Part shown: positions 5,025 to 32,000 of the stretch, one piece after another
Layout of the letters: every line of letters starts with the position of its first letter
Position numbering within the stretch: position 1 is the stretch's first letter
Source: Psychrobacter cryohalolentis K5
Lineage (GTDB): Bacteria; Pseudomonadota; Gammaproteobacteria; Pseudomonadales; Moraxellaceae
DNA: 32,000 nucleotides
Direction of reading: 5' to 3'
Assembly: GCF_000013905.1 (NCBI RefSeq)
Contig: NC_007969.1
Location: 1,230,001-1,262,000, forward strand
Translations under genes and position numbers: made by a program
The notes under the pieces: model-generated
Told to the model about the DNA's origin: nothing
Seen by the model: the letters and a program-made list of their open reading frames with translations, nothing else
The model's database searches: none

Positions 5025-5921
5025 ATGTATGTAAATCATTCGTCACCACAACCCAATTCTACGATTCAAAATATGAAAGCACTAGAAGTTGATAACGCTC
5101 AAAACATAAGAACGGCGTTTTTTATCTCTGATGGCACGGCGATTACAGCAGAAACGCTTGGCCGTGCTATTTTAAGCCAATTTGCTTCAGTGCCCTTTGA
5201 GACTCGAGTATTGCCTTATGTGGATAATCTAGAACGTGCTGAAGATGCGGTTGTGCAAATCAATACCGCCTATCAGCGAGATGGCTTGCTGCCACTGGTG
5301 TTTGATACTATTGTTAGTCCTGAGATTCGTGAGAAAATCAATTCAGCACACAGTTGTAATCTTGATATGTATGAAGGTCTAATCGGTCGCGTTGCAGAAG
5401 AGACGGGCGTGGAGCCAGATGGGCATTCAGGTCATGCCCATGATAACGTCGACTCTGAGACTTATAAAGAGCGTATTGATGCGGTGCATTTTGCTTTAGA
5501 TAACGATGACGGCGCTCGTACCCGTCATTATCATGCAGCAGATATTATTTTGATTGGCGTTTCACGCTCTGGTAAAACGCCAACCTCATTATATTTGGCA
5601 CTACAATTTGGTATTCGAGCGGCCAATTATCCTTTAACCGAAGAAGACCTAAACGACAACCAGCTACCTAAAGCATTGCGTGAGCATAAACACAAGTTAT
5701 TTGGTCTGATTATCGATACGGATCGCTTGGTGAAAATCCGCCAAGAGCGTCGCGCGGGTAGTCGCTACTCAAGTTATCAGCAATGTCAGCAAGAACAGCG
5801 CGCAATACAAGGAATTTATACCTCGCAGGGGATTCCAAGCCTTGATGTGTCAGAGATGTCCGTTGAAGAGATTGCCACGCGTATATTGCAGATGACTGGT
5901 CTCAAACGCCGCATTGGCTAA
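5025..5921 (+). CDS. ppsR: PEP synthase regulatory protein (bifunctional kinase/pyrophosphorylase, DUF299/YdiA family)
   Basis: FFISDGTAITAETLGRAILSQF and the P-loop GVSRSGKTPTS match PpsR. It is divergent from ppsA, as in enterics. By alignment to E. coli YdiA the true start may be the internal ATG at 5073 (MKALEV...). Confidence 0.9.
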   Translation: MYVNHSSPQPNSTIQNMKALEVDNAQNIRTAFFISDGTAITAETLGRAILSQFASVPFETRVLPYVDNLERAEDAVVQINTAYQRDGLLPLVFDTIVSPEIREKINSAHSCNLDMYEGLIGRVAEETGVEPDGHSGHAHDNVDSETYKERIDAVHFALDNDDGARTRHYHAADIILIGVSRSGKTPTSLYLALQFGIRAANYPLTEEDLNDNQLPKALREHKHKLFGLIIDTDRLVKIRQERRAGSRYSSYQQCQQEQRAIQGIYTSQGIPSLDVSEMSVEEIATRILQMTGLKRRIG

Positions 5922-10355: not shown

Positions 10356-10358
10356 AGC

Positions 10359-11642: not shown

Positions 11643-11731
11643 GACAGTGAGATTCCTAAAGCAATAGAGTCGGTAATAAGCAAAATAAATCGTTTGTCGT
11701 CTGATATTGCTAAGACGATAAATGGGCGATG

Positions 11732-13483
11732 TTATTTGTCATATAAAGTGGGTAGCCGAATATCGGCGGCATTGAGATAGGCATTAAAGGCAAGGGGCGT
11801 ACCACAGCTTTGCATAAGAGCAGCAAGTGATTGAACATAGCTATAAGCTGCTTGCGCTTGCTCCGTACGTGCTTTTAACGACTGCGTTTGCGCTTGGGCA
11901 ATCTCGACTGGCGTATTTAAACCCTCTTGTAATCCAAGCCTGCGCAAACGCAAGACTTCTGCCGCAAGCTCTACATTGCTTTGTAGAGCTTGATAGCGTG
12001 ATTGGGCGTTATTCACATCATGCCAGTTTTTTTCAACCAGTAATAATAGGTTGTCACTGACTTCAATCTCAGACAAATCAGCTTGACGTATCTTGGCATT
12101 ACTTGATGCCAGAGACGCAGTTTTATCCAGACCGCCCCATAATTTCCAACTCGCCGATACGCCAGCGACCCAGCTTGGGTCTTTTTCAATTTGCCCGTAG
12201 CCATACAGCATGACAGTCGGCTTGTAACCAGTATCCGATAGCGCATGCAATTGCTGAGCCTGAGCACGTTTGGCGGCGACTTTTTGTAGACCTGGGTGAT
12301 TGGTCAGTGCCAAATCTTGAAAGTAGCTGACATCAGGTAAGGGTCGGCTTGAGACAAACAAAGGTGTGCGAGGTTTAATGCGATACTCAGTGCGCAATAG
12401 ACGCTGTAAAGCTATCATGGCAAGACGTGCATCATTATTGGCATTGACAGATTCACTTTTGGCATCAGCAAGTGCCGACTGCGCTTCTAAGCGATCAACT
12501 CGCGATATAAAACCTTCTTCAAAAAGCCGCTGCGCCATATGGTCAGTCTGCTGCAAGGTATCATAGGCATCGTCACGTAAATAGGCGGCAATGATTGCCA
12601 ATTGCGCTTTAAAATAACGCTCAATCAAGGTGTTATAAAGCTCGTTTTTTTCCAATATACTGTCAGCTACGGCTTCTTGAGTACGAGCATTGGACGCGCC
12701 TGTCAGAGCGGCAGTACGTCCAGCGGTATAAATAGGCCATACTACCCCAAGTCCTGCGCCCGCCGTAGAGCCTGAACGTTTTAACTCGTAGTTATCTGGG
12801 ATACGCTCACCAACCAATTCACCAAAATTTGGCAAATCTGGAATGGGCGGAATAATGTCACCAACCCCGTTATTAATATCATTAACGATGCCGTTTTTTA
12901 GCGACGATAGATCAATGTCCGCATCCAAATTGTAGGTAGTGGCTGAAACACGAGCAAATACAAGTGGGTGGTCGATAGTTTTGAGGGCATCCGTTTGATA
13001 CTCGCTGGCAGCAATAGCGGCTTGATTGGCAGCGATTTTTGGGGATACTTGCAACAAAATATTTTGCGCTTGTTCAAGACTTAACAAGCTAGACACTTCT
13101 AACGGATAGCTGTTCTCTATGCTTTTATGGGTAATAGGATCGATAAGCGTGCTTAGAGCTGCTTGACGTCCATAGACCTCGCCCGTACTGTCGACACGTA
13201 TCGTCGCTGATTTTACAGAAGCTTCGTTTATAGAAGATTTGTTTGCAGAAGCCGCATGCTTAGAGGATACAGTTTTAGAGGGGATATTTTGATTGACCAT
13301 ATCAAGTGCACTTGATGCATTGTTTTGATTGTCGGCGTCGATAATCTGTGTCACATTGACAGCTATCATCTCATTTTGTGACTCATTCATATGCTCATTA
13401 GCGCGTGCAGAGGCAGTCGCCGCTATACTCATGAGCGTAATCGTCATTACGGCAGTGGACAGAGTCGATAGAGCAAATTTCAT
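11732..13483 (-). CDS. TolC-family outer membrane efflux protein with a roughly 120-aa low-complexity extension after the signal peptide
   Basis: The signal peptide is MKFALSTLSTAVMTITLMSIAATASARA. Two OEP-type repeats contain long helical segments (LEQAQNILLQVSPKIAANQAAI..., LRRLGLQEGLNTPVEIAQAQTQSLKARTEQAQA). It is the first gene of the operon. Confidence 0.85.
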   Translation of the reverse strand: MKFALSTLSTAVMTITLMSIAATASARANEHMNESQNEMIAVNVTQIIDADNQNNASSALDMVNQNIPSKTVSSKHAASANKSSINEASVKSATIRVDSTGEVYGRQAALSTLIDPITHKSIENSYPLEVSSLLSLEQAQNILLQVSPKIAANQAAIAASEYQTDALKTIDHPLVFARVSATTYNLDADIDLSSLKNGIVNDINNGVGDIIPPIPDLPNFGELVGERIPDNYELKRSGSTAGAGLGVVWPIYTAGRTAALTGASNARTQEAVADSILEKNELYNTLIERYFKAQLAIIAAYLRDDAYDTLQQTDHMAQRLFEEGFISRVDRLEAQSALADAKSESVNANNDARLAMIALQRLLRTEYRIKPRTPLFVSSRPLPDVSYFQDLALTNHPGLQKVAAKRAQAQQLHALSDTGYKPTVMLYGYGQIEKDPSWVAGVSASWKLWGGLDKTASLASSNAKIRQADLSEIEVSDNLLLLVEKNWHDVNNAQSRYQALQSNVELAAEVLRLRRLGLQEGLNTPVEIAQAQTQSLKARTEQAQAAYSYVQSLAALMQSCGTPLAFNAYLNAADIRLPTLYDK

Positions 13484-18156: not shown

Positions 18157-18849
18157 ATGAGTGAAAATAAAGACGACAAAATTGAAGATGTATTAGTAGA
18201 TTCGGAGCTGGCAAAAAAGTTGGTGCCGAATAAGTTTAAGTTTACTAGCCAGCAAGGACGCGCCCGCCGTCAAAAATTGTTGATGGGTGCTAAAAAGTTG
18301 AGTGAAACTCAATCTATTAATGATATTACGCTTGCCGCTGTCTGCGAAGAAGCGGGTATTCCACGGGCGTCTGCTTATCATTTCTTCCCTAATATTGAAG
18401 CCATATTTTTGGCGCTGCGTTTTTTAAATGCTATTGATATTTTAGATGTATTGAGAACCGTTGAAACGGTTAAATATGATAGATGGCAAGGGTATCTTAC
18501 AGCGCTGATTGATCGCTGTGTACAAATTTTTGATGAAGATCAAACCAAAGCCAAATTAATTTATGATACCAATACGCCTGATTTTGAAGGCGACAGTTTT
18601 GGCGAGCATATGGATCACCAAGTAGTAAAATTGGTCTATGATCGTTTGGCTGAACGCTATGAAGTGCCTAAGTTTGAAGATATTCAAGATGTCTTATTGA
18701 TTACCTTTAGTATCGTGAATGCGATCTTTACTGTTTCTTATCGTCGTCATGAGCGTATTACCGATAAGTATTTGCAAGAAGCTAATACGGCATCTATCGC
18801 TTATCTGCGTTGTTACTTGCCAGAGAAGCTACCGCGTAAAGACCGTTAG
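18157..18849 (+). CDS. TetR/AcrR-family transcriptional regulator
   Basis: The N-terminal helix-turn-helix, ITLAAVCEEAGIPRASAYHFFPNIEAIF, is typical of TetR_N. The C-terminal ligand domain is helical. Confidence 0.85.
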   Translation: MSENKDDKIEDVLVDSELAKKLVPNKFKFTSQQGRARRQKLLMGAKKLSETQSINDITLAAVCEEAGIPRASAYHFFPNIEAIFLALRFLNAIDILDVLRTVETVKYDRWQGYLTALIDRCVQIFDEDQTKAKLIYDTNTPDFEGDSFGEHMDHQVVKLVYDRLAERYEVPKFEDIQDVLLITFSIVNAIFTVSYRRHERITDKYLQEANTASIAYLRCYLPEKLPRKDR

Positions 18850-18879
18850 TCTGTCTATTAAGTTTTAAAGACAGACATT

Positions 18880-18913
18880 AAAAAAATCCGACATTTATAT
18901 GTCGGATTTTTTT
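18880..18913. terminator. Bidirectional rho-independent terminator between the TetR gene (+) and the lipoprotein gene (-)
   Basis: aaaaaaatccgacat-ttat-atgtcggattttttt: a 9-bp core stem flanked by A7 and T7. It is preceded by a second hairpin, gtctgtct-N12-agacagac, at 18849-18876. Confidence 0.85.
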
Positions 18914-18964
18914 GCTAAATTTTTATGTATAAGCTTTACAAAATACTTATAGTGAATAAAATTT

Positions 18965-19750
18965 CTACATTTGATCAAGTGTAGGCAATACTTGTCCATT
19001 ACAGCGATCACCACTTGCATCGAAAGGCAAGTATTGCTCATAATAACGTACGATAAGCCCTTCTAATGCCACGTTTTCTTTAGAATCTTGAGCATTAACA
19101 AAAGCTTCACGTGCTTGTTCAAGCCAGCGGTCAGCCATGCGAAATTGGCTGCCTGCCTGCCGTGAATTATGTTCGCATTGGTCGGTCGCTGCCCAGATTA
19201 ATGCCACTTCACTAAATGCTATTTCACGGGGAGCACTTGCAATACCACCGCTGTCTTTAAGGGCGCTTAACGTTGCCCATAAATCAGGTCGCATTAGCGC
19301 TGATGAGGCAGATATATCTTGGATAAGAACAAGATCGTTTTCTGAGCCTTTTTTTAATGCTTGCAAAATAGCTTCTGCAGATTTTGCCGCTTCTAATCCA
19401 GCAGGTGAGCGACTATTCATGCTGTCTTTATGGATGGCATAGTTGAGCCAAGCTTGGGCTTTATAAGCAAAGTACTGTTGCTGCGCAGTTTTATCTTTTT
19501 GCTGATAATGCTGCAGTTCTGCTAGCATACAGCTCATCGCACGTTGCTGCGTATTTTGGTTTTTATATGTCGCTTTTAAATCCTGACTCTGGCAGTAATC
19601 AGAGGTGTCTACAGTAGTGATATGAGCACTTTTTTGAAGAGTCGTAGCTGTGGTTGATACACATGAAGTCGTTGATAATAGCAAAACAGCTGAAAACGCA
19701 GCACATATTGGATTTTTATAAGTAGCTACTTTAATAGTAGAGTAAAGCAT
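18965..19750 (-). CDS. Hypothetical secreted, probably lipidated, alpha-helical protein
   Basis: The ORF-track start at 19795 is TTG. The ATG at 19750 gives MLYSTIKVATYKNPICAAFSAVLLLSTTSC-VS, a signal peptide ending in a lipobox-like TSC. The mature part is A/Q/L/E-rich (helical) and contains 4 further Cys. Confidence 0.6.
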   Translation of the reverse strand: MLYSTIKVATYKNPICAAFSAVLLLSTTSCVSTTATTLQKSAHITTVDTSDYCQSQDLKATYKNQNTQQRAMSCMLAELQHYQQKDKTAQQQYFAYKAQAWLNYAIHKDSMNSRSPAGLEAAKSAEAILQALKKGSENDLVLIQDISASSALMRPDLWATLSALKDSGGIASAPREIAFSEVALIWAATDQCEHNSRQAGSQFRMADRWLEQAREAFVNAQDSKENVALEGLIVRYYEQYLPFDASGDRCNGQVLPTLDQM

Positions 19751-19847
19751 AACGCGAAAACCTTGTAGTAAGCTGATAAGTATCGGTGCTGGCAATTTTG
19801 AGACTGATTTTATCGCTTATCAAATGCTATAGTCAATTTACTTCAAA

Positions 19848-19876
19848 AATATAGTGCTATTGGAATAAGATGTCAA
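19848..19876 (-). promoter_or_regulatory. Near-consensus sigma70 promoter (TTGACA-N17-TATATT) for the lipoprotein gene
   Basis: The minus strand reads ttgaca tcttattccaatagcac tatatt. It lies in the gap between the 1762-aa gene stop (19965) and the lipoprotein ATG (19750). Confidence 0.55.
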
Positions 19877-19964: not shown

Positions 19965-22900
19965 TTATAATGTAGAGGATACAGGTGCTGCACGTTTATT
20001 TTTACGTGGGTCTTCACGCTTAAATAGATCTTCATCAAACTTGAAGCGTAGTCTAAAGTAAGCGCCCTCGATGGTAGTATCGTCATAAGCGATGTCTTCA
20101 TCTTCAAAGCCCATGAAGTTATAACCAAGCGATAACCATAAATTGTTCATTGGATTATAGCCAACTTCAGCGCCAACTAAATAGGCTAGGTCATTTGCTT
20201 GCTTATTCCAATAAGTACCTGCTTGTAAACCAATATCCCAGCGCTCGCTAATATCATATAAGCCACGAGCATACAAAGCATGAGCGGTATTGTCACTTGC
20301 GATACCTTGAGCATCGTATTCGGTATATTTACCTGCATAGTGACCTGATAATGTTAATGGTCGCGTTGGATGGTAGTTACCGCTCCATGACCAGACAATA
20401 GCATCCTTTTGATAAGGGTCATCACCAGTGGCATTATCATCTAAGCGATATTCAAGCTTGGCCAGCATATCAAGCTGATTGCTATCGTAGTCGCGATAGG
20501 CAGCACCAAGTTGAAAGCGATTGATAGTCCGATGACCATCGTCATAATCAACTTTTGAATAAATATCTTTGGCTAATAAAGTCACTTCATCGTTATAGCG
20601 ATAGGCAACGCCAGCACTACCTAATAAGGTGTCACTGGTATCGCCCCAGCGTTTTTCTAGGCGCCCTGATGCTTTGTAATTTTCGTTAGCAAGGTATTCA
20701 ACGCCAAAACCTGCTGCAGTTGAGGTACTGTCTTTCTCACCCTCTAAAGATTCGACACGCTCGAGTAAAGTATTAAGCGTCAAACCTTTTTGCACATACC
20801 ATTTATTCTTTAGACCAATGGCAGCTTCCGCTTCGCGAGCACTGATGGCATCACGCATACGGTATTCACTATAAACCTTGCCATCTTTCATATAAGTGGC
20901 ATCAAAGCCGACAACAGTGCGTTGACGCTCCTCAGAATCGTCTAAACCATAGCTGCCAGACAAGCTATTGATTAAATCATGGCGAGCATAAAGTCGACCT
21001 AAATTACCCAGTGCTGTTTCACCGCCGATAGAGGTTGCGTTACGTGAGCTGTGTTCAATATCTTGCTCATACTCAGCAAATACCAATGAGTTATTTAGCT
21101 TTGGCAAACGCGCGGTTAGACGGGCGCGGGCAGTGGTGCCTTCGATATCTTTTTCAGTGTTGCTGACGTTGCTTAGCGCAGATTGATTAATGATGTCATC
21201 ATTTGCAAAAGTATCATTAGTAATATCCACCACATCTGTTGCTGCTTGGATATTACGTGAGGCTGCTGCTTCTTGTTTATAGTAGCGTACACCAATTTCA
21301 CCAACGATATTTTTGCTTAAACGCTGTTCGATACTGGCCTGTACGCCTTCAGTACTTGCATCAGTAATATGATCTTCTGTGCGTACGCCTTCAAGTTTAA
21401 GCGCAGTCTTTTTCTCGTTTAAAGTGTGGATGATTTCGATGCCAGATTCGGTACGACCAGCAGTTTGTGGTGACGCGCCAGTGACAAAACCGATATCGGT
21501 ATCGTTATGATAGGCTTTTGCACGGGTATGTTTTTTATTATCATAGTCAAGCTCGATACGTAGAGCGTCACCCTCAGCATTATCGCCTGTTAGTTTGTCC
21601 GCATTGATCTGATTGCTTGGCTCGAAATTTGGATTCTCAGCTTTGTTTTTGGCATATTCTGCGACCAGTTTTAGCTTGTCATTAAGTTTAACCACAGTAT
21701 TAACGCTAGCAAGCTCTTCTTTATTAAGTGGATCATCACTATTAATATAGCTGCCACCGATGGCAATTTTATCAGTCAATTGTCGTTTAGCAGCGACGCC
21801 ACCTACCCAATATTTCTCACCACCTTCATCAACTTCGACAGTAACGCGTAGGTAGATAGGGTTGCCATCGATATCTTGGCTAGCAATCGGTGATTTTAGA
21901 TATAAGCTACGGCTAATAGGATCAATTTCATAATCAGCAAAGCGCGTCAAGGTCTCACGGCGCACAATACGTCCAGGATTATTAGCATCACGGGTGATTA
22001 CTTCTATAGTTTCTGAATTTTCTAATACTGCATCAAAATCATTAGCAAGCGGGTAAGGACCTGAAATGCCCAAACCACGAGTTTCATTGACACGCTGTGA
22101 GGTGCTTGTTTCAGCGGCAAAAGCAGTAATACGCGTGTTGCTATCTTCAAACTGGGCTTTGACACCAGTCAGTGTACGATTGTATTGACCGAGCTTAATA
22201 CCTTCATCGTTGTCAATTTGAGTCTTTAAGTCGCCATACATGGCAAATGAGCGACCTTTATCTAGACGTACATATAGCTTGCTCGTCGATTGCGCATCAA
22301 AACCTTTGGCTGATGAGTCGCCGTAAACTGGATAGTATTCGCCCGGCTCGATATCACGGAACAGGCGCTCGCCTTTTTTGTCGCTGTCATAAGCAAGCGT
22401 TAATAGATAATCACCGCGTACTTTGCCTTTTAAGAACATTGCCGCACGACCCGTCGCTGAGTAATCATCGTTACCGGCTATTTCGCGTAATTCTTTTTCA
22501 AATGCACCTTGTGCGTCAGTGATATTACTACCATCAAAGTCTTTGAGCGCTATCGCGCCTTCAACGATACCAACAGCTATTAATGGACGCAATTGAGCCG
22601 TAAACTGTAGCGGAATTACTTGCTTATTGCTGCCTGTATCGATGATCATCTCACCTTTACCGGGTACGCTTGGCGCAGTCACGGAGATCAATAGCTCACC
22701 ACCATTGACAGTAACTTGCGTGCCGGCTTGGTCTTTACTGCTGTCTGCCAAGTTGATACGACCAATATTGGTATCAATGGTGATAGGAGTTGATGCTATA
22801 TAAGGACGACCATCACGATCTTTTAGACTGATAACGATTTGATAATCGCTGACGCCGTCTGCTGCCACCAGTTGTTTTTGGGTACGATAACTAATAGATT

Positions 22901-25238
22901 GTAAAATATCCGGTGTTAATACCTTGATAGTTTGCTCAGAGATAACTTTGCCATTCACGTCGGTTGCGACACCGCGTAAAGTATTAGTGCCACGCTTTAA
23001 ATCGACTGCGTAATAATCAAATGCAGTGACATTTTGCTTTTGTTGTTCAGCCGTTTTACCGATTTGTTCTCTTGATATGGCTTTACCGTTGGCATATAGA
23101 GTGAAAATAGAGCCCAGTGGGGCTTGTACCTGTACCATTTGTTTATAAGTGCTGAGCTGCTGACCTTCACTCAAATTAATGAAAGAGACATTATTAGTTG
23201 CCACTTCTTTAAGGTATTCTTCTAACTCTTTTTCTACAGGAGGTGCAATTTTAGTAATTGCCATCTCAACGCGATTGGCAGATGGGTTGACCATTTCATT
23301 GACGATGGCTGAATCGCATTGAATGCCTGCATCTAAAACATCGTTAGATTTACAGCCGCTGGCATTGATATTGTCTTTATTGTCGCGGTTATAGTCAGGA
23401 TCTAAAGTTAGCTCGCTTTTAACTGCTTGCTCTAAGCGATCGTTTTTGGCACCGATACTTTTGCTACGCGCAACAAGCTCTGCGTTTAAGCGTTCAGTAC
23501 TGTCCGCCATACCGCCAACGATGCCGAAATCGGCACGATGTAACTCGCCATATTTTAGGTCAACGAAACGGCTACCTGCATCGCCAGCATTACGATTGCT
23601 TTGAGTGACCAGTTCTGTGGCGTTTGGAATAGTAGTGCGGTCAACTTTTAGGACGTGGGTTTTAGCACTAATACCATAAAAGTTATATTTACCTTCAGGA
23701 TCAGTGACAGCAAAGTTACCGTTTTCCATATAGATACGCACGCCAGCAACACCAAGCTCACCATTTTGTTTTTGCTGAATGCCATCGCGGTTGATATCGT
23801 GGTAGACCTTACCAACGATGATGCCGTCTGTATTCATAACACCGCGATCGACTTCTACTTTCCACTGGGCTTCTCTTGATACGAGGCTTTGATCTTGCTC
23901 AGTTTTGGCAATAGCAGTCGCACGGTTAATGCCGTCACCGCCTAATGCTGATGAACCAACTAATACGCGATAAGTAATATCTTTACTAGTTTTGGCATCC
24001 ATATTCCCCAGACTTAAAACTTGATATTTGCCATCGGTTTTAAACTCAGTGGTTTGTGCTTTGTCAATGCTCACACTACCACCAACGTAGTCGAAGCCGC
24101 GCGGTAAAGCGTCTTTTAATTCAACGTTATAAGCCGTACTGGTACCATCATTTTTGATATTAATCGTATAATTAACATAATCACCGAGTGAGGCAGTTTT
24201 GACATCACCTTCTTTGGTAACTTGCAGGGTTGGGATATCATTAACGATGGCAATGTTGGTACTAATATTTTCTGTAATTTTTTGGCTTATACCCTGTGAG
24301 TCGATATAAGCATCCAGCTTAGCAACTAAATTAGCACCTTCTAGCGTCTGAATGATATCGTCATTAATGGTATTGGCGTTATTTTCTGTTGGTACTTCGA
24401 TGCGAAACTTTCCAGTATTGTCGCCAGTCTCGAGAGCTTTGAGTGAATATGTATCGCCAGTCTTAGAAGAAGTAATGGTTATCCATACTTGATCGCGTTT
24501 ATTATCTTGAACATTACATTTAGCACAGCTGGCTTCAAGATAGATATTTTCACCCACCTGCGATGTTCTTCTATAGCCATCCCATGAATAAAGCATAAAA
24601 TCGAGACGTGTTTCAACGATGATTAGCTCGTCACTCACTAAAGCGGTAATAGAAGGGTCTTCGACAACAGCAGCACCAAGCTGGATGCTAGCAGTATCAT
24701 CGGCTTTAGCATTGGTATCAGATAATGCTTGTATAGTAAGCTCAATGCTCTCGCTTTGTCCTAAAGCAATCTGAGCGGTTAAATTGTTATTTAACTTAAT
24801 CTCTTTATCAACACCATCATCGAAGCGTCCGTCGTTATTCAAGTCTTGATAGAGTTTTATGTTCGATAAACTATTAGGTATAGTCAGGCTCAAATCGATA
24901 GTCTGATCACTGTAACTGGTATTGGTTAGAAGGTTTTTCCAACTAACGGTCAAGCCAGGGGCGATAGTCTTTGTTGGCGGTGAAGTTAGGCTAATACCAT
25001 ATTGAGGAAAAGCAGACGATTCAACACTCACTTGGTTAGAAGTGCTATTTAGATTAAAGTTAGTACCGTTACTAATAATATAACTGGATTCAGCAGTATT
25101 TTTGATGGATTGTAGCAGAGGGTTAGGCGCTGCTAAGGCTATATTTGATTGCATAAGCAACATTGCCAATGACAGCGCAGAGATCTTCGCTGTACACAAT
25201 GCGATACGATTAGACGGTGTCATTACAGATAGAGTCAT
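19965..25238 (-). CDS. Giant (about 1757-1762 aa) secreted protein: N-terminal Ig-like repeat region (DUF11/TIGR01451, SdrD-B-like, Big_1-like) fused to a large C-terminal outer-membrane beta-barrel-like region
   Basis: The ORF-track start at 25253 is TTG; the first ATG is at 25238. The signal peptide is ...ISALSLAMLLMQSNIALA/APNP. The DUF11 motif is ASLGDYVNYTINIKNDGTSTAYNVELKDALPRGFDYV. The SdrD-B motif is GKVYHDINRDGIQQKQNGELGVAGVRIYMENGNFAVTDPEGKYNFYGI. The Big_1-like motif is LVAADGVSDYQIVISLKDRDGRPY. The last roughly 850 aa consist of amphipathic beta-hairpins with aromatic ends, finishing in GAYFRLRFKF. Confidence 0.8.
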   Translation of the reverse strand: MTLSVMTPSNRIALCTAKISALSLAMLLMQSNIALAAPNPLLQSIKNTAESSYIISNGTNFNLNSTSNQVSVESSAFPQYGISLTSPPTKTIAPGLTVSWKNLLTNTSYSDQTIDLSLTIPNSLSNIKLYQDLNNDGRFDDGVDKEIKLNNNLTAQIALGQSESIELTIQALSDTNAKADDTASIQLGAAVVEDPSITALVSDELIIVETRLDFMLYSWDGYRRTSQVGENIYLEASCAKCNVQDNKRDQVWITITSSKTGDTYSLKALETGDNTGKFRIEVPTENNANTINDDIIQTLEGANLVAKLDAYIDSQGISQKITENISTNIAIVNDIPTLQVTKEGDVKTASLGDYVNYTINIKNDGTSTAYNVELKDALPRGFDYVGGSVSIDKAQTTEFKTDGKYQVLSLGNMDAKTSKDITYRVLVGSSALGGDGINRATAIAKTEQDQSLVSREAQWKVEVDRGVMNTDGIIVGKVYHDINRDGIQQKQNGELGVAGVRIYMENGNFAVTDPEGKYNFYGISAKTHVLKVDRTTIPNATELVTQSNRNAGDAGSRFVDLKYGELHRADFGIVGGMADSTERLNAELVARSKSIGAKNDRLEQAVKSELTLDPDYNRDNKDNINASGCKSNDVLDAGIQCDSAIVNEMVNPSANRVEMAITKIAPPVEKELEEYLKEVATNNVSFINLSEGQQLSTYKQMVQVQAPLGSIFTLYANGKAISREQIGKTAEQQKQNVTAFDYYAVDLKRGTNTLRGVATDVNGKVISEQTIKVLTPDILQSISYRTQKQLVAADGVSDYQIVISLKDRDGRPYIASTPITIDTNIGRINLADSSKDQAGTQVTVNGGELLISVTAPSVPGKGEMIIDTGSNKQVIPLQFTAQLRPLIAVGIVEGAIALKDFDGSNITDAQGAFEKELREIAGNDDYSATGRAAMFLKGKVRGDYLLTLAYDSDKKGERLFRDIEPGEYYPVYGDSSAKGFDAQSTSKLYVRLDKGRSFAMYGDLKTQIDNDEGIKLGQYNRTLTGVKAQFEDSNTRITAFAAETSTSQRVNETRGLGISGPYPLANDFDAVLENSETIEVITRDANNPGRIVRRETLTRFADYEIDPISRSLYLKSPIASQDIDGNPIYLRVTVEVDEGGEKYWVGGVAAKRQLTDKIAIGGSYINSDDPLNKEELASVNTVVKLNDKLKLVAEYAKNKAENPNFEPSNQINADKLTGDNAEGDALRIELDYDNKKHTRAKAYHNDTDIGFVTGASPQTAGRTESGIEIIHTLNEKKTALKLEGVRTEDHITDASTEGVQASIEQRLSKNIVGEIGVRYYKQEAAASRNIQAATDVVDITNDTFANDDIINQSALSNVSNTEKDIEGTTARARLTARLPKLNNSLVFAEYEQDIEHSSRNATSIGGETALGNLGRLYARHDLINSLSGSYGLDDSEERQRTVVGFDATYMKDGKVYSEYRMRDAISAREAEAAIGLKNKWYVQKGLTLNTLLERVESLEGEKDSTSTAAGFGVEYLANENYKASGRLEKRWGDTSDTLLGSAGVAYRYNDEVTLLAKDIYSKVDYDDGHRTINRFQLGAAYRDYDSNQLDMLAKLEYRLDDNATGDDPYQKDAIVWSWSGNYHPTRPLTLSGHYAGKYTEYDAQGIASDNTAHALYARGLYDISERWDIGLQAGTYWNKQANDLAYLVGAEVGYNPMNNLWLSLGYNFMGFEDEDIAYDDTTIEGAYFRLRFKFDEDLFKREDPRKNKRAAPVSSTL

Positions 25239-25279
25239 ATGTTGCTTATCCAATAAAACAAGATGGGGGGGTAAAACTC

Positions 25280-25387: not shown

Positions 25388-27439
25388 TTATGGCGTAGGA
25401 GTAACTACCCTAGCAGTTTTGACTTTTACTTTAAATTGCATGGTTTCAGTTGCTTGAGGCGCTAACATATCAATATTATTAGTAATGGCAGTTCCAGTAT
25501 CAGATGTTGTGCCATTAGTAGTCTCTACAGAATTCGCTACATAGTCAGCCTCATTTGAGAAGTTAGAAAATGCATCTGAGATAACGATATTTTTAATATC
25601 AAAACCTATGCCTGTAGGAGAGGTCGTATCAGCAGAAGAAGTATTTTTCGCTTGGACCTTATAAACAATACATTGGCCAGGCGAAACGTCTTTAATGTCA
25701 GTACTGACAAAATTCGCAGCAGGAGGTGTACCCACACAATCTGCATTTATCGCTTGGGTTTTCAGCAATGTTAAACCGCGAACAGTTGTTCTATCGGTGA
25801 CTGAAACCGATTGAGGCGCGCCTTCCTTACCTGGAATCAAGGTGACCACAGTTTCTTCGAATGTAGGAGTGGTAGAGTTTATTGGTGTAAATATTTTTGC
25901 ATTGGCTGATGACACGTTATATTTAATAGTGACAGTACCATTAGGGGCTATACCATTAGGTAAAGCAGAAAAGAGATCATAGACACCATCGACCGCGGTA
26001 ATAGTTTTATCCACTACTGTTGGTGTTGTGGTGTCGTTGCCATTTGGATAATAAGTGACAGTGACGCTATTAGGAACTATATTAATTTGGTCTGGCAGGT
26101 TACCGTCATTGTCATTGATAGTAAAAGTTAATTCCTCAGCTTTAATGCCCTCGACGTCTTTACCAGTGTTGGTGATGACCGTTTGATGTTTCACTTGACC
26201 GAGAGTACCTGAAGTCGGTGAAATCTCTCTGAAAGTTGAACCAGTTAGTGTTAGAGCTCGCTGAATAGTTGCTGAGGATAGTGGCAGTGTTGAGTCATCA
26301 CCTGGGTTAGCTGGTCGCTGACCGTTGAGGTTATTAATCTCGGTAGTAGGATAGAACGCACCAACATTTTGTTCTCTACTAGTGTCTGTACTATCGATAA
26401 GCGTATTATCAGTATTAGGATTGTTATCCAAGTCATCAGTCACTGTCACGTGATTGATAGCTGTTGCAGGAGTAAGTGTGCCTGTCCCTTTTTTGACTTT
26501 AAATTCAATAGTTATGTTTTGCCCTACTGGGATATTGATACCAGTAATGTTAAAGCCACTAGTACCTACAGCACCCGTATTAATGGGATCGATAGTGCCT
26601 TTAGTCGCAGTAGAACTGGTTTTGATATTAGCTAGTGTTAGTGCCTCTGCCATTACCAGACCATCTGGTAGAATATCTGCAATAGCAATATCAGTAGCAT
26701 CAGCCGTAAATGCAGTGTTGCCATCGTTGGTGACTACAACTCTATAAGTAGCTGTATCATTATCAAGATTATTGAGGTCTAAGCCATTAATAATCGTCTT
26801 AACGATACTAAAGGTAGGAAGCCTTGTAAAAGAGGTGTCAGTATTGATGAGTGTTTTATCTGTACCTAAAAGTGAACTAACCGCAGAGATTTCTAGTGGT
26901 TTGGTTTCACCACCTTTGTTACCAGTGGTTTTGGCATTAATAACAAGTACAATATAATGCCCTTTTTCAAGAGGAAAAACTCTGCCACTAGAGGCACCAT
27001 AGGGCGCATTATCTGTAGTACGAGTTGTATCTTCTACATTAAGCTCGTTATATATCTTATACGAGACAGTAGAGTTGGCCGTATCATAACCGGCAGGAGC
27101 TGTTGGCGTCGTGATAGCATAGTTATCAGTGCGGTTACCCGTGTTGGTCAAAGTATGCGTAAACTGAACAAACCCATTAGGCGCTACTTCTTTTCCAGTA
27201 TTAGTGACAGCAGGAACCAATGAGAATGATGTTTGCTCTGTTACCGTTATTTTTACTGTGTTAGATTCGACTTCTGGTTGAGCCTGACCACTCACATTAT
27301 AGCTAGCGGTAGCTTTGTTAGTAATCTCTACGCTCGTTGATGTTTTAGACGTCTCTACTGCATTAACAGTCGTGCTCATACCTAGTATAGCAGCGACGCC
27401 AATGGCTAATAAGCTGTAATTAAAAGTGCTTGATTTCAT
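25388..27439 (-). CDS. Secreted multi-domain DUF11/Ig-like repeat protein (683 aa), candidate major fibre/shaft subunit
   Basis: GGAG lies 6 nt upstream. The signal peptide is MKSSTFNYSLLAIGVAAILGMSTTVNA. At least 4-5 repeats carry the motif x-Y-x-V-x-V-T-N-x-G-N (FVQFTHTLTNTGNRTDNY, ATYRVVVTNDGNTAFTAD, VKHQTVITNTGKDVEG, PGQCIVYKVQAKNTS). The protein is T/N/S-rich and has only two Cys. Confidence 0.75.
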   Translation of the reverse strand: MKSSTFNYSLLAIGVAAILGMSTTVNAVETSKTSTSVEITNKATASYNVSGQAQPEVESNTVKITVTEQTSFSLVPAVTNTGKEVAPNGFVQFTHTLTNTGNRTDNYAITTPTAPAGYDTANSTVSYKIYNELNVEDTTRTTDNAPYGASSGRVFPLEKGHYIVLVINAKTTGNKGGETKPLEISAVSSLLGTDKTLINTDTSFTRLPTFSIVKTIINGLDLNNLDNDTATYRVVVTNDGNTAFTADATDIAIADILPDGLVMAEALTLANIKTSSTATKGTIDPINTGAVGTSGFNITGINIPVGQNITIEFKVKKGTGTLTPATAINHVTVTDDLDNNPNTDNTLIDSTDTSREQNVGAFYPTTEINNLNGQRPANPGDDSTLPLSSATIQRALTLTGSTFREISPTSGTLGQVKHQTVITNTGKDVEGIKAEELTFTINDNDGNLPDQINIVPNSVTVTYYPNGNDTTTPTVVDKTITAVDGVYDLFSALPNGIAPNGTVTIKYNVSSANAKIFTPINSTTPTFEETVVTLIPGKEGAPQSVSVTDRTTVRGLTLLKTQAINADCVGTPPAANFVSTDIKDVSPGQCIVYKVQAKNTSSADTTSPTGIGFDIKNIVISDAFSNFSNEADYVANSVETTNGTTSDTGTAITNNIDMLAPQATETMQFKVKVKTARVVTPTP

Positions 27440-27513: not shown

Positions 27514-27978
27514 TTAGTCAACGATGGTATTAAGGGCTACGGCTGCAGATTTATTGGCGGGTAATAACTTGATATTCCAACGTAAGGTACGGTATTCAGA
27601 AAAAGGAATTTTTACCATTTTGCCATCGACTTTGCGCATCAGTGGCATATCAGCATAGTTCTTGCCATCGATACTGCCTTGGGCGCTAGCGGGAGATACC
27701 TCACCATTAAAAGTCATATTAGCTGGAATGGGCAGGGTAACTGCTAAGTCATTGATATTTTCATTGATGGTATTGCTATAAGTTGCTTTGTACTGAATCA
27801 CAGTGCCCTTAGGTGCAGTCCGAACTGGTAAGTAACTAATTTTACCTTCACTATTTTTAACGACCTTGTTAGCGGTTAGCTCCATTTTTAGAGCTTCATC
27901 TGCATAAGCTGTATTTAACAAAAATACCGATGCTAAACTGGCTAATAAGGCAGTACGTAAAATGTTAAAACCTTTCAT
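27514..27978 (-). CDS. Secreted single-domain DUF11-like protein (154 aa)
   Basis: AAGGA lies 7 nt upstream. The signal peptide is MKGFNILRTALLASLASVFLLNTAYA. One Ig-like module is present: APKGTVIQYKATYSNTINENINDLAVTLPIPANMTFNG. Confidence 0.75.
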   Translation of the reverse strand: MKGFNILRTALLASLASVFLLNTAYADEALKMELTANKVVKNSEGKISYLPVRTAPKGTVIQYKATYSNTINENINDLAVTLPIPANMTFNGEVSPASAQGSIDGKNYADMPLMRKVDGKMVKIPFSEYRTLRWNIKLLPANKSAAVALNTIVD

Positions 27979-28250: not shown

Positions 28251-29903
28251 CTAAGGATTTGCTGTGGTGCCATATTTGGTATTGAAGTAAAAAACGCGAT
28301 TGTTTCTTGCATTGATGGTAAGGGTTCTGGTTTTGACTTCACCATTTGCTCCAATAGCTGGATTCTCGGCAGCGTTATAATCAGTGGTTGAAAGTGGTGG
28401 GTTGGCAAGTACTGATGTGACTTGAGCGCCGTTTACCCCTTTTTTCTGCAGCACATCTCGCATCACAAAATCGCTGATCACGATATTTGCACGATTGGTG
28501 GCGGTAATTCTATAAGCAATACATTGTCCTGGCACAAGATCGTTGATGCTTGCAGAGCTAAATCCTACTCTAGGATCGTTATTGCCTGAAGTATTGATAG
28601 CAGGGTCAGTATAGTTGAGTGTAGTAGGACAGTTATTGATGTACTGGGCCTTTTTTAGAACCAGTGCTACGTTTGCTGCGATGACTTTACCGAAGTTATT
28701 ATCTGGATAATGGTAAGTGGTATTTGCAAATGCAATCACTTTCTTATTACTATTGGTACGGATAGTATAGACATTACCGGTATTATTATTTTTTTCTACT
28801 AAACAGAGATTATTGGTATTGCCACTGATGGTAGTAATAGGAACATTTATCTTATATTGACCGATAGTAGGTGTGCTACCATCAACCAATTGCGAACCAT
28901 AAACAGATCCATTTGTACAGTGAGTAAGCTCAACAGTACTACTAGGAATACCAGCTTCAGCATTAGGTGTAGCGCTATCGAATATACCGTTAAAGTAATT
29001 AGCGTTATTAGCATAAGGACCTGTTGTAATATTGGCGTTAGTAGCATTAGCATCTGTGATACCACCATTATCGTTAAAAACAATACCTGAGAAAGTATAT
29101 TGTGGCGTGTAGCAGTAGCTATCTACTCGAAACTGAAACCTTTGACTTGTAGGAGTAGTTACATTATTAGTATTAGTGTAGCTAAAAGTGACCGATCTGA
29201 TATCCTCGCTAAATAAGACAGATCCTTGACAATTTGTATCAAGAGCAGCAGTGCAGTTAAATGATGCATTTGTAGAAGAGGTCTGAAGCCCATTTGCCAG
29301 CTCAATGACACTGGATCCAGATAGTCTTTGAAAAGTCCCTTTAATCTTAGTGTTGTTTCGGGTTATGCCAGTGATGCTGACTAAATCATCCCAACCTGTC
29401 TTATTGCTGCCTATGCTTTTATCAATATCAAACGCGCTTATGGCAACATTATTTAAATAAAGAGAGTCACTATTCCCAGTGTTTTGAAAATCTAAAGTGA
29501 TATCAGAACGAGATGTTAGATCTTTGAAATTTCTATTAATATCCATAGCCGGATTGGCGCTAGTTCCTGTGATCGTAGTATTATTACCAGAAGTATTAAC
29601 GTTGATATCTTCAATAGTCATTTTGATTTTCAATGGAATAGACAAACTTGACGTACTTGTCATAGGCTGATAAGTATTTGTGTCAAAACTCTCTTTGAGC
29701 TTAGTGTAGTTGCTGTTATCGAATATTCCCTTAGTTGAGCTAGCTGGGCATGCTAGGTTAGCTCCAGGGTTAGGTGCAAGTGCGAATGATGAATTGCTGA
29801 TCGTAAGAAAAATCATCGCTGTCATCAACGCCAACATTCGATATATATATTCACCAAATAATTGTGAAACTATTACATTTACGAAGCGCTGAGTCTGATA
29901 CAT
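28251..29903 (-). CDS. Secreted Cys-containing protein (550 aa): novel N-terminal domain, SdrD-B-like domain and C-terminal DUF11-like module; candidate tip adhesin
   Basis: AGGGA lies 7 nt upstream. It has a long signal peptide ending in ...MLALMTAMIFLTISNSSFALA/PNP. The SdrD-B-like segment is FSGIVFNDNGGITDA...EAGIPSSTVELTHCTNGSVYGSQLVDGSTPTIGQYKINV. The C-terminal module (LVPGQCIAYRITATNRANIVISDFVMRDVL) is paralogous to the 683-aa C-terminus. Confidence 0.75.
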   Translation of the reverse strand: MYQTQRFVNVIVSQLFGEYIYRMLALMTAMIFLTISNSSFALAPNPGANLACPASSTKGIFDNSNYTKLKESFDTNTYQPMTSTSSLSIPLKIKMTIEDINVNTSGNNTTITGTSANPAMDINRNFKDLTSRSDITLDFQNTGNSDSLYLNNVAISAFDIDKSIGSNKTGWDDLVSITGITRNNTKIKGTFQRLSGSSVIELANGLQTSSTNASFNCTAALDTNCQGSVLFSEDIRSVTFSYTNTNNVTTPTSQRFQFRVDSYCYTPQYTFSGIVFNDNGGITDANATNANITTGPYANNANYFNGIFDSATPNAEAGIPSSTVELTHCTNGSVYGSQLVDGSTPTIGQYKINVPITTISGNTNNLCLVEKNNNTGNVYTIRTNSNKKVIAFANTTYHYPDNNFGKVIAANVALVLKKAQYINNCPTTLNYTDPAINTSGNNDPRVGFSSASINDLVPGQCIAYRITATNRANIVISDFVMRDVLQKKGVNGAQVTSVLANPPLSTTDYNAAENPAIGANGEVKTRTLTINARNNRVFYFNTKYGTTANP

Positions 29904-30010: not shown

Positions 30011-30490
30011 TAATTTTGTAAATTTCCTAGAAAACGGATGAATGGCAGATTTAGTATGACGAAATACATATATTTCTGCTGAATATTATATTTATCACTC
30101 ATTAGAAAGAATTTCCCAACAAACCTCCCAAATATCTCAAAAAACATAATCACTATTTATTTTAAAAATACTTGTCATATTGGCATTTCTCTATAGCTAT
30201 AAACAATACGTGAATAAACCCCTATAATAGAGCGTCAATATCATTTGATGATGAAAGTCGCATATCGGCTGTCGTTTACTTTTACTACGATGTCTGTTTG
30301 AACCCCATGCCAAGCTACAGTTGCTGATTATTAGCACTGGTCTGTAATAGCCAAGACATATAATGGAATGACGAGATGCAGCAAGGAAGGCATTAGGTAA
30401 ATCGTTTGCTTACGAAAATATGTATAACTCTGTGATTTAATAATACCCTGCCACCGTGTAGGGATGACTGATAAAAAAGGATTAGAGAAG

Positions 30491-32000
30491 ATGAATTATT
30501 ACAAGGATGCTGATAGCAGCGAAACGCAGGAATGGCTGCAAGCTTTTGAGTCTGTGATTAAGCATGCTGATAAAGATCGCGCGCAGTTCTTATTAAAAGC
30601 CTTATATAATATGGGGGTGCAAGAAGGCCTGCCCTTTAACCGTTTAGATACGGCCTATATCAATACCATCGCCGTTGAAGATGAGCCGATGTACCCAGGT
30701 GACTTGACGATCGAGCGCAAGATTCGCGCCTTGATTCGCTACAATGCTTTGGCAATGGTGATGCGCGCCAATAAAAACGATGACGATTTGGGCGGTCATT
30801 TAGCCTCATTTGCTTCTAGTGCGACGCTATATGAAACTGGTTTTAACCATTTCTTCCGTGCTGCCAGCGATCATTTCGGCGGCGATATGATTTACTATCA
30901 AGGTCACTCAGCGCCAGGTATGTATGCCCGTTCTTATCTAGAAGGTCGCTTGACTGAAGATCAGTTGGATAATTTCCGCCGTGAAGTCGGTGGTAAAGGG
31001 TTATCAAGCTATCCACATCCTTATTTGATGCCGGACTATTGGCAGTTCCCAACGGTTTCGATGGGCTTAGGTCCTATCATGTCAATCTACCATGCCCATG
31101 TACATCGCTATATGGAAAACCGCAAACTGCTAGAGTCAGAAGGTCGTAAGATTTGGGCGTTCTTAGGTGATGGTGAAACAGATGAGCCAGAAAGCTTAGG
31201 TGCTATCTCTCTTGCTGGTCGTGAAAAGCTGGATAACCTGATTTGGGTCGTTAACTGTAACCTGCAGCGCCTCGATGGTCCTGTTCGTGGTAATGGTAAA
31301 ATTATTCAAGAACTTGAATCCGTGTTTCGCGGTGCAGGCTGGCGAGTGATTAAAGTGGTTTGGGGCGGTAACTGGGACAGTCTGCTTGCTAATGATGATA
31401 CCGGTGTCCTTAAACACCGTATGGAAGAGACAGTCGACGGTGAGTATCAGCTATATGAAGCGCGCGATGCCAAATTTACCCGTGAGCATTTCTTTAATAA
31501 GTATCCTGAATTAAAAGAGATGGCAGATGCCTTAACGGATGAAGATATTTCACGTCTGAACCGTGGTGGTCATGATCCGATGAAGGTTTATGCCGCGTTT
31601 AGTGAAGCCATGAAAACCAAAGGTCAGCCGACGGTTATTTTAGTGAAGACGGTCAAAGGCTATGGTCTATCCACCACCCAAGCGGTTAACAAATCGCATC
31701 AAGTCAAGAAGCTTGATCAAGAAGCATTGGTATACTTCCGTGACCGTTTTGACTTACCATTTACTGATGAGCAGTTAGAAACGCTTCCGTTCTACCGTCC
31801 AGCTGAAGACTCAGCAGAGATGAAGTATCTAAAAGGTCGCCGCGAAGCCTTGGGTGGCCATTTGCCAAATCGCCGTAGTGGTCATATTCCTTTGAATATC
31901 CCTGATTTATCTATCTTTGATCGTGTTTTAAAAGGTAGTAACGGTAAAGAACAATCAACCACCATGGTGTTTGTGCGCCTATTATCAGCAATGCTAAAGA
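30491..32000 (+). CDS. aceE: Pyruvate dehydrogenase E1 component, N-terminal roughly 503 aa (runs off the window end)
   Basis: Absent from the ORF track because there is no stop in the window. My translation, MNYYKDADSSETQEWLQAFESVIKHADKDRAQFLLKALYN...GGHLASFASSATLYETGFNHFFR...YYQGHSAPGMYARSYLEGRLTEDQLDNFRREV, is collinear with E. coli AceE. GGA lies about 9 nt upstream. An alternative in-frame ATG exists at 30464. Confidence 0.93.
   Translation, partial: MNYYKDADSSETQEWLQAFESVIKHADKDRAQFLLKALYNMGVQEGLPFNRLDTAYINTIAVEDEPMYPGDLTIERKIRALIRYNALAMVMRANKNDDDLGGHLASFASSATLYETGFNHFFRAASDHFGGDMIYYQGHSAPGMYARSYLEGRLTEDQLDNFRREVGGKGLSSYPHPYLMPDYWQFPTVSMGLGPIMSIYHAHVHRYMENRKLLESEGRKIWAFLGDGETDEPESLGAISLAGREKLDNLIWVVNCNLQRLDGPVRGNGKIIQELESVFRGAGWRVIKVVWGGNWDSLLANDDTGVLKHRMEETVDGEYQLYEARDAKFTREHFFNKYPELKEMADALTDEDISRLNRGGHDPMKVYAAFSEAMKTKGQPTVILVKTVKGYGLSTTQAVNKSHQVKKLDQEALVYFRDRFDLPFTDEQLETLPFYRPAEDSAEMKYLKGRREALGGHLPNRRSGHIPLNIPDLSIFDRVLKGSNGKEQSTTMVFVRLLSAMLK

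Follow-up and report, generated by a model that had tools for sequence, protein, structure and literature searches.

A conserved locus of Psychrobacter cryohalolentis ties CLIPPER-type adhesin domains to a predicted giant outer-membrane barrel

Introduction

How are fibrillar adhesins of Gram-positive style exported and held at the surface of Proteobacteria? Papers on proteobacterial CLIPPER adhesins name OmpA-like "anchors", describe neither an outer-membrane route nor a barrel, and leave this question without an explanation (PMC12617251, PMC10952558). It is raised anew by a locus of Psychrobacter cryohalolentis K5, analysed here within a stretch of 32,000 nucleotides (contig NC_007969.1, positions 1,230,001 to 1,262,000; referred to as the window). 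On the minus strand of the window lies a gene of 1762 codons, hereafter the barrel gene, whose product, the barrel protein, carries passenger-type immunoglobulin (Ig)-like domains N-terminal to an oversized barrel-like region with an insert. The original prediction, made from the DNA letters alone, had described this arrangement and judged that it matches no secretion class. Pfam and AlphaFold2 (AF2) agree with the arrangement, and Pfam, NCBIfam, a profile search of PDB sequences and Foldseek yielded no class for it either. We judge the locus to encode a genuine outer-membrane system for fibres or adhesins, of a kind not yet characterised and with a function that we infer, and the barrel protein is probably the outer-membrane base of this conserved export and anchoring system for surface fibres or adhesins.

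Results

The C-terminal module is predicted to form a giant barrel

One giant outer-membrane barrel is a well-supported prediction for the C-terminal ~870 residues of the barrel protein. In the AF2 model of aa 780-1762 (52 homologues; mean predicted local distance difference test (pLDDT) 75; predicted template modelling score (pTM) 0.64), about 40 consecutive antiparallel strands run through aa 893-1737, broken at aa ~1051-1142 by a small beta domain. The count is 7+31 = 38 if the strands flanking this insert belong to it, and 40 if they belong to the wall. Covariation was read by mean-field direct coupling analysis (DCA) of 479 sequences (effective number ~230) with a reduced alphabet, and in it aa 1040-1049 pair weakly with aa 1148-1158 on the far side of the insert, which favours 38 strands. 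Structure prediction and strand count thus bear out the earlier reading of ~850 aa of beta-hairpins as an oversized barrel, and the beta-sandwich that had been placed at aa ~1058-1145 is recovered as the highly conserved small beta domain. The suggestion that the barrel is "roughly three times" the size of an autotransporter barrel gives way to ~38-40 strands, which to our knowledge exceeds any solved single-chain barrel, the largest having 36.

Other features of the module are those of an outer-membrane protein. Many strands alternate hydrophobic and polar residues, the last one (GAYFRLRFKF) is beta-signal-like and followed by a 25-residue tail, and weak Pfam matches to outer-membrane protein families are seen, i.e., Phenol_MetA_deg at its cut-off in the barrel protein and OMP_b-brl, Porin_4 and BBP2 in homologues. 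The module itself has no family in Pfam or NCBIfam, and a profile search of PDB sequences returned nothing. When the barrel model was compared with PDB structures by Foldseek, nearly all of the best 50 matches are outer-membrane barrels, with two low-ranked exceptions and no usher among them. Deinococcus SlpA leads (8ae1; template modelling (TM) score 0.24), followed by SprA (E 2e-7, TM 0.16-0.21), MtrB and LptD, then by TonB-dependent receptors; with TM scores of only 0.15-0.24 these matches express class-level likeness and not kinship. SlpA, SprA and LptD have 30, 36 and 26 strands, respectively. Barrels of the size proposed here have been predicted before: in 2021, Solan et al. derived large, single, uncharacterised Gram-negative barrels of 38 and 40 strands in silico from contact maps, although that paper gives no operon, partner or function (PMC8346858). 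The present family may be among them (families 002/003), the strand count being compatible.

Conservation is concentrated at the start of the module. Of its 65 invariant columns, 36 fall within aa 889-1144, the first quarter, which includes both the insert (invariant G1062, S1064, G1065, E1081, R1088, D1107, Y1108, N1131 and R1136), among the most conserved parts of the family, and aa 956-988, the most conserved segment of all, modelled at pLDDT below 50. This crowding of invariant residues, together with the low confidence of aa 956-988, suggests a partner-binding or gating element, and aa 956-988 may be a loop of this kind. The GDSS in the same segment resembles lipase motifs, probably by coincidence.

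The barrel protein belongs to a very large family

Searched on its own, the 873-aa module finds 3257 clusters at 50% identity with E<=1e-3, and 1312 with E<=1e-30, the matches being ~40% identical over the full ~870-aa module. The barrel protein is therefore no one-off fusion but a typical member of a very large, uncharacterised family. In most of 150 listed proteins the module is C-terminal, behind a variable ~180 to ~2500 residues, and its HMMER match is often split at a variable, gap-rich loop. Minimal members (~1030-1100 aa) have, besides the module, only a signal peptide and a Big_1-like domain, and typical members of ~1950-2000 aa carry CarboxypepD_reg, CLIPPER and SdrD_B. Scanning one genome per species, we find relatives in at least 592 species genomes; carriers include Psychrobacter, Moraxella, Acinetobacter, Alkanindiges, many Burkholderiales, Geobacteraceae, Verrucomicrobia, Nitrospirota and Acidobacteria. 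All member annotations are generic ("hypothetical", "DUF11", "SdrD B-like"). Under MHC5865427.1, a 387-aa fragment of the homologue from Moraxella osloensis is filed as "Streptococcus pyogenes", almost certainly through assembly contamination.

The database holds an identical protein from P. cryohalolentis (100% identity, 1757 aa), named only "DUF11 domain-containing protein", and the open reading frame proposed earlier is real. This entry begins at an ATG, codon 6 of the frame as drawn from the TTG, and the ATG at 25238 is the probable true start, giving 1757 aa. Residue numbers here are counted from the TTG.

The barrel gene is part of a conserved operon

The barrel gene is part of a conserved multi-gene operon, S-M-barrel-O, of four to five genes. 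Along the minus strand, the barrel gene has the genes for W550, S and M upstream of it and that for O downstream (Table 1). Gene order was compared by local iterative searches over 87 loci, and S and M were counted where 4 kb or more of sequence was available upstream. S and M, in that order, directly precede the barrel gene in all 29 Psychrobacter loci and in 37 of 39 other fused-form loci, so that the S-M-barrel order holds in 66 of 68 loci across phyla. In distant loci, the homologues of S have 155-220 aa and those of M 650-960 aa. S is the best-conserved accessory protein, with phmmer E values of 1e-19 to 1e-22 to its counterparts in Betaproteobacteria and Steroidobacteraceae. W550 is present in 31 of the 87 loci read, and a large CLIPPER-repeat protein (BIG, 900-3300 aa) often follows in the loci. 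O, whose probable start is the ATG at 19750, is homologous to the N-domain of an OmpA-family protein that is encoded directly downstream of the barrel gene in most other taxa. No accessory gene of the operon reaches a Pfam family threshold.

Some loci vary this plan. In four of them from Psychrobacter and related bacteria (L020, L023, L024 and L051), extra copies of S and/or M lie upstream, e.g., W550-S-M-S-M, which fits subunit diversification. Two loci from Methylibium/Burkholderiales metagenome-assembled genomes (L078 and L084) have two tandem OmpA-family O genes after the barrel gene, and L083 encodes an O protein of 746 aa with an inserted region. At 10001-12949 of L040 (Psychrobacter sp. 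JCM 18903), the barrel gene is broken into several open reading frames (1096, 539 and 129 aa), through either gene decay to a pseudogene or faulty assembly.

In three loci, the barrel is encoded by a separate gene with its own signal peptide, whose start overlaps the stop of an adhesin gene by 4 nt. These split-form adhesins of 2300-2770 aa contain CLIPPER, SdrD_B, CshA_NR2, GEVED and DUF7933 domains, and an OmpA gene follows the barrel gene. Near their C-terminus, a region of ~240-290 aa, followed by a tail of 40-65 aa, shares 36-39% identity with aa 340-620 of the barrel protein from Psychrobacter, and the separate barrel proteins align with it from aa ~770-796 onward. By these alignments, adhesin and barrel are a true fission/fusion pair, split always within the linker. 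That the two are fused in some lineages and split in others is a strong genomic argument for a barrel that acts together with adhesins of CLIPPER type.

The N-terminal part is a string of Ig-like domains

The N-terminal half was modelled as aa 42-800 (AF2, 38 homologues, mean pLDDT 77.6). The signal peptide proposed at about aa 1-41 stands, with a cleavage site after ALA41 read from the sequence, and the other domain coordinates of the original prediction lie within a few residues of those found here. Its two Ig-like regions at aa ~75-340 appear as two well-modelled sandwiches, the second of which bears the ETGDNTGKF motif singled out earlier; the motif is conserved across the family as ETGxNTGxF. 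The DUF11 module that had been placed at aa ~343-450 is a member of PF01345, its 53.5 bits comparing with a Pfam cut-off of 24.6. CLIPPER domains of this type occur in surface fibrillar adhesins, and the only solved structure, 9IFR, comes from an Acinetobacter fibrillar adhesin (PMC12617251). By alignment to 9IFR, K347, D381 and N443 correspond to the Lys/Asp/Asn isopeptide triad as defined in the same work (PMC12617251).

For the SdrD-B-like module, AF2 gives a beta-sandwich and homologues score 37-49 bits, above the PF17210 cut-off of 29.7, although the protein's own match (aa 482-547) stays just below it at 28.6 bits. The helical, Cys-containing linker is modelled as two helices and then disorder with two Cys (aa 586-672). 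Next comes an Ig-like domain at aa 690-780 that the original prediction had not listed. The Big_1-like module proposed at aa ~786-888 is a Big_1/Invasin_D3-like sandwich (aa 784-885) in the AF2 model, but no Pfam match to Invasin_D3 or Big_1 reaches threshold (E 0.031; 24.5 bits, with the cut-off at 34.9), here or in minimal homologues. As a whole, the N-terminal model resembles by Foldseek the Ig strings of Gram-positive surface proteins and pilins, among them PrgB, the major pilin BcpA (target-normalised TM 0.41), UafA and antigen I/II.

N-terminal tags and truncated C-terminal domains

M and the fused barrel proteins have in common, at their mature N-termini, a conserved strand motif, termed the tag, with the consensus AAPAAGTTINNTATASYTVGGGTQQTVTSNTVTVTVSQLASFSL; in M it reads EITN41KATASY...S59N60TVKITV (aa 36-66). 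A hidden Markov model (HMM) of the motif matches the N-termini of 75 of 85 M proteins and 75 of 89 barrel proteins. The misses are nearly all contig-edge fragments or the three split-form barrels, with two or three apparently complete proteins as well. The motif HMM matches no BIG, W550 or S protein, and also hits seven internal domain junctions.

At the other end, W550, M and the large CLIPPER proteins finish in a CLIPPER-like domain, mostly 0-11 residues from the C-terminus. The complete domain of the barrel protein spans positions 2-103 of the DUF11 profile. Four of six C-terminal domains from other loci cover positions 2-84 or 10-85 of 114 and end no more than 2 residues from the protein end, and the remaining two stop at positions 51 and 88, 13-46 residues before it. 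In the window, the C-terminal domains of M and W550 match DUF11 weakly or not at all (M: DUF7927, 14-95 of 132; W550: DUF11, E 0.029). These C-terminal domains appear to be without about the last 20 profile positions, the Asn-bearing strand included. The Asp of the truncated domains is invariant (23/23, 80/80 and 31/31 sequences), and the isopeptide Lys is at least 80% conserved in those of M and W550. S has the same type of fold, and the Asp is absent.

A tag on M and on the barrel protein, together with truncated C-terminal domains, is the pattern to be expected were each such domain completed by the N-terminal strand of the following subunit. Since Lys and Asp are kept, an intermolecular isopeptide is a possibility. 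The pattern therefore suggests head-to-tail strand complementation, possibly covalently sealed. An HMM of the last strand of the barrel protein's own CLIPPER domain matched no N-termini, and against Pfam DUF11, chimeras of a truncated domain with a real tag scored within 1 bit of those with a shuffled tag. Sequence homology between tag and last strand is thus not established, and the argument for complementation is the complementary presence and absence of the two elements.

Table 1. Features of the barrel protein and of its operon in the window. Residues are those of the protein named.
Feature	Residues (aa)	Nucleotides	Strand	Evidence or description
Barrel gene (barrel/anchor)		19965..25253	-	1762 codons from TTG
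Signal peptide	6-41	25131..25238	-	cleavage ALA41/A42 (...NIALA41, A42PNP), read from sequence
N-terminal strand motif (tag)	46-80	25014..25118	-	motif HMM; SIKN52TAESSY...S72N73QVSV
Two Ig-like beta-sandwiches	~102-212, ~216-337	24243..24950	-	AF2, pLDDT ~90
Complete CLIPPER/DUF11 domain	343-455	23889..24227	-	Pfam, 53.5 bits
SdrD_B (CnaB-like) domain	477-580	23514..23825	-	Pfam, 28.6 bits; AF2 sandwich
Linker	586-689	23187..23498	-	AF2; two helices, then disordered stretch with two Cys
Two Ig-like domains directly before barrel	690-780, 784-885	22599..23186	-	AF2
Predicted outer-membrane beta-barrel	893-1737	20043..22577	-	~38-40 strands; AF2 and Foldseek
Most conserved segment of family	956-988	22290..22388	-	AF2 pLDDT<50; DSDK..RLFRDI.P.EYYPVYGDSS.KGFDAQS
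Conserved insert, small beta domain	~1051-1142	21828..22103	-	AF2
M protein		25388..27439	-	683 aa; signal peptide, N-terminal tag, Ig-like repeats, C-terminal truncated CLIPPER-like domain
Truncated CLIPPER-like domain of M	~553-683	25391-25783	-	K560, D622
S protein		27514..27978	-	154 aa; signal peptide, single CLIPPER-like domain without Asp (..TLPIP..)
W550		28251..29903	-	550 aa; secreted, Ig-like, no N-terminal tag; C-terminal truncated CLIPPER-like domain (28254-28658)
O protein		18965..19795	-	276 codons; helical domain, lipobox-like ..STTSC

Discussion

A proposed base for surface fibres

In the export and anchoring system that we favour, all components would be exported by Sec, and the barrel would be inserted by the machinery for beta-barrel assembly (BAM). 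An even strand count would place both barrel termini in the periplasm, so that the chain before strand 1 would have to cross the lumen to reach the surface. The barrel would be ~7 nm wide with room for folded Ig domains, a fit that would explain so large a barrel for isopeptide-locked domains. From strand 1 outward, the chain would present two Ig domains, the linker, SdrD_B, CLIPPER and two more Ig domains, a topology like that of a classical autotransporter. Insert, conserved loop, lumenal Ig domains and O may gate or fill the pore. M and W550, like very large CLIPPER-repeat adhesins in other bacteria, would be distal fibre parts, and M and W550 would form the fibre by joining the exposed N-terminal tag; O would be a periplasmic or lipoprotein accessory, and S a chaperone- or cap-like single domain that guards tags in the periplasm. 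Surface exposure, lumen passage, partner roles and subunit joining are all steps that we infer.

How the parts might be joined is a more tentative matter. It is conceivable, if doubtful, that the system builds a sortase-independent Gram-negative fibre with split-CLIPPER joints, in which the tag is supplied in trans and maybe locked by a Lys-Asn isopeptide, with the barrel as anchor and export pore. The distal C-terminal domain, whether of W550, a large CLIPPER protein or M, would receive its missing Asn-bearing strand from the tag of the next subunit (I-x-N-x-A-x-A-x-Y ... S-N-x-V), carried by M or finally by the barrel protein. A spontaneous intermolecular Lys-Asn isopeptide may lock the joint as a natural SnoopTag/Catcher, and the fibre would then be covalently continuous with the ~38-40-strand barrel. 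The order would run from a tip (W550 or BIG) through M, possibly repeated, to the barrel protein as the base, and S, an acceptor fold lacking the Asp, could serve as a non-covalent chaperone or cap for the tag. Comparable joints exist: a clostridial matrix protein carries intermolecular isopeptides, and in archaeal threads an isopeptide between subunits goes together with donor-strand complementation (PMC9715654). In those threads (Saci_0406), as in the engineered SnoopTag/SnoopCatcher pair, an N-terminal strand completes the Ig-like fold of a neighbour and an isopeptide seals it, although the threads are not homologous and their N-terminal Asp-Asn bond joins subunits n and n+2.

Several points weigh against the barrel protein as a fibre base. 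The searched literature holds no experimental data on any family member. Surface exposure of the N-terminal part is putative, by analogy of its domain types with those of adhesins. Closure of the barrel and its insertion into the membrane are predicted, and the single closed barrel and the position of the Big_1 domain are model-level statements. DCA gave no barrel-closure signal, gap-rich loops leading its noisy top scores, and the hairpin signal is weak, ~1-5 standard deviations over background. The insert may be a plug, as the original prediction had proposed by analogy with other barrels; its position relative to the lumen is putative, and a domain of ~90 aa alone cannot close a ~7-nm barrel. 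Psychrobacter O has no OmpA domain, and the operon contains no inner-membrane or energy-coupling component. Strong sigma-70-like sites (TTGACA-17-TATATT, 11/12; 19807-19876, minus strand) lie within the 170 nt that separate O from the barrel gene, so that O may have its own promoter.

Known secretion systems and rival readings

Searches of Pfam and NCBIfam, and of PDB sequences with the single protein and with a profile, match no known secretion class. None of the Pfam models Autotransporter, IAT_beta, ShlB/POTRA, Usher, LptD, TonB-receptor and secretin is matched by the barrel protein at E<=1. Type Va autotransporters end in a 12-strand beta-domain (PF03797) with a helical linker in the pore, and type Vb systems pair a 16-strand, Omp85-type TpsB bearing POTRA domains with a cargo that has an N-terminal two-partner secretion (TPS) domain. 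An N-terminal passenger, Sec export and adhesin and barrel genes that are fused or adjacent, as in Va versus Vb, recur here. However, type Va and Vb barrels have 12 or 16 strands and the present one ~38-40, with no PF03797 match at E<=1; the passenger is not the autotransporter beta-helix but Ig-like CLIPPER and SdrD_B; the recognition domain of two-partner secretion is N-terminal, whereas the shared element here lies near the C-terminus of the split adhesin; and S, M and O are extra conserved partners. No ShlB, POTRA or TPS match in Pfam was seen in the barrel protein, in six homologues or in the precomputed hits of the split-form adhesins. In type Ve (intimin/invasin), an N-terminal IAT_beta barrel (PF11924) precedes C-terminal Big_1 repeats; here the order is reversed, IAT_beta is not matched, and Big_1/Invasin_D3 is sub-threshold.

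One rival reading is a self-contained giant autotransporter whose barrel exports and anchors only its own passenger, with S, M, W550 and O as independent neighbours. The passenger-N, barrel-C order and the absence of dedicated machinery from the operon agree with it. We nevertheless consider it unlikely, since the S-M-barrel order is kept in 66 of 68 loci across phyla, the N-terminal motif is confined to M and the barrel protein, and in the split form the barrel gene is coupled, by overlapping stop and start codons, to an adhesin gene of its own. Nearly the same low probability is given to a platform of usher type, in which the N-terminal Ig domains would stay in the periplasm and recruit subunits, the insert would be the plug, and fibres of M, BIG or W550 would grow through the barrel. 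Chaperone-usher systems consist of an Usher (PF00577, 24 strands, with a plug) and a PapD-like two-domain chaperone. They share with the present system a barrel interrupted early by a domain, a small protein of Ig fold, a subunit of intermediate size, large tip-like proteins and possibly a polarity in which the tip lacks the N-terminal strand and the base lacks the acceptor, as in FimH and PapH. The insert follows the first ~7-8 strands, as the PapC plug does (PMC4356140), and the operon indeed supplies a small conserved Ig protein and large tip-like proteins. But Pfam gives no Usher or PapD match in the barrel protein or the operon, ushers are absent from the best 50 Foldseek matches, S has one domain of ~130 aa where such a chaperone has two, the N-terminal part has its homologue at the C-terminal end of bona fide adhesin-like proteins, and a 90-aa plug cannot close a ~38-strand barrel. 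Moreover, the barrel is far above 24 strands, the base subunit is fused to it, and the domains are of CnaA type with isopeptide residues.

Less probable still is an envelope tether or large channel, in which a periplasmic Ig string and an OmpA-type partner would bind the outer membrane to peptidoglycan as in Deinococcus SlpA. SlpA (8ae1) is the best Foldseek match and an OmpA-family partner adjoins the barrel gene in many loci, yet the TM score to SlpA is just 0.24, Psychrobacter O is devoid of an OmpA domain, and the partners carry adhesive CshA_NR2/GEVED domains and isopeptide stalk domains typical of extracellular fibres (PMC12617251, PMC10952558). A slim chance, finally, is left to the idea that the C-terminal 870 aa form not one giant barrel but at least two smaller ones on a single chain, or a beta structure outside the membrane. 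The pTM of 0.64 with several low-confidence loops, the missing closure covariation, the frequent splitting of the HMMER match at the variable loop and the existence of chains with several barrels (PMC8346858) speak for it; against it, the strand run is continuous with no linker that would leave even-numbered sub-barrels, the top-ranked structures are the largest single barrels and align over ~1200-1300 columns, the split point is a gap-rich variable loop, and single barrels of 38/40 strands have been predicted independently from contact maps (PMC8346858).

Other known systems share single traits with the locus. SprA of the type 9 system is also giant, a barrel of 36 strands made from one chain; it lets folded proteins pass, and its cargo is recognised through an Ig-like C-terminal domain. 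However, its hosts are Bacteroidota and those here Proteobacteria and others, the barrel is here fused to Ig domains, and no PorV, Plug or PorLM/T9SS-type families occur in the operon. Adhesins of the Acinetobacter silvestris B9T28_05395 type (9IFR) have the same stalk domain with the Lys/Asp/Asn triad, and CLIPPER/DUF11 adhesins resemble the present system in the CshA_NR2/GEVED heads of the split-form partners and in the OmpA-family proteins of the loci. Sortase-type pili differ, as no sortase family is found in the operon and the C-termini are truncated Ig domains and not LPXTG. A type 11 (T11SS/Slam) route was set aside because the cargo paper concerns DUF1194 and not DUF11. Membership of the CLIPPER family concerns only one domain of the barrel protein. 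By analogy, the fibre base that we favour would work like a hybrid of type V secretion (a passenger and a barrel, fused or split) and chaperone-usher pili (polar subunits and a barrel insert), with a barrel the size of the type 9 translocon.

Implications

The locus ties isopeptide-stabilised adhesins genetically, by fusion or as neighbours, to a widespread barrel of unprecedented predicted size. If the proposed base is correct, it would represent an outer-membrane secretion or assembly route distinct from types 1-11 and from chaperone-usher pili, as well as a ~38-40-strand BAM substrate, and if the split-domain idea holds, it would include a natural self-ligating tag/catcher pair. Psychrobacter and its Acinetobacter relatives are culturable and genetically tractable, so that the system, with its compact operon of four to five genes, is directly testable.

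Other features of the window

Upstream of W550 lies an AT-rich intergenic region of ~590 nt (34% GC). Beyond it, a long open frame, MNYYKDADSSETQEWLQAF (30428-32000, plus strand), starts near 30490, diverges from the operon and leaves the window; we take it to resemble the N-terminus of pyruvate dehydrogenase E1 (aceE). At the other end of the operon, a perfect 16-bp hairpin with T/A runs on both sides (18879-18914), like a bidirectional terminator, separates O (18965-19795, minus strand) from a convergent TetR-family gene (18157-18849, plus strand). No RNA genes are present in the window. Four minus-strand genes at 7858-13483 encode an OEP outer-membrane efflux protein, a HlyD-type adaptor and two ABC-2 permeases, with no adjacent ATPase gene; as an exporter for the operon, this TolC/HlyD/ABC-2 cluster was rejected, being of ABC-2 efflux type and absent from the six related loci with called genes that were read. 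At 2266-5921, a phosphoenolpyruvate (PEP) synthase gene (PPDK_N/PEP-utilizers) is divergent from that of its regulatory kinase/pyrophosphorylase (PF03618), an ordinary pair.

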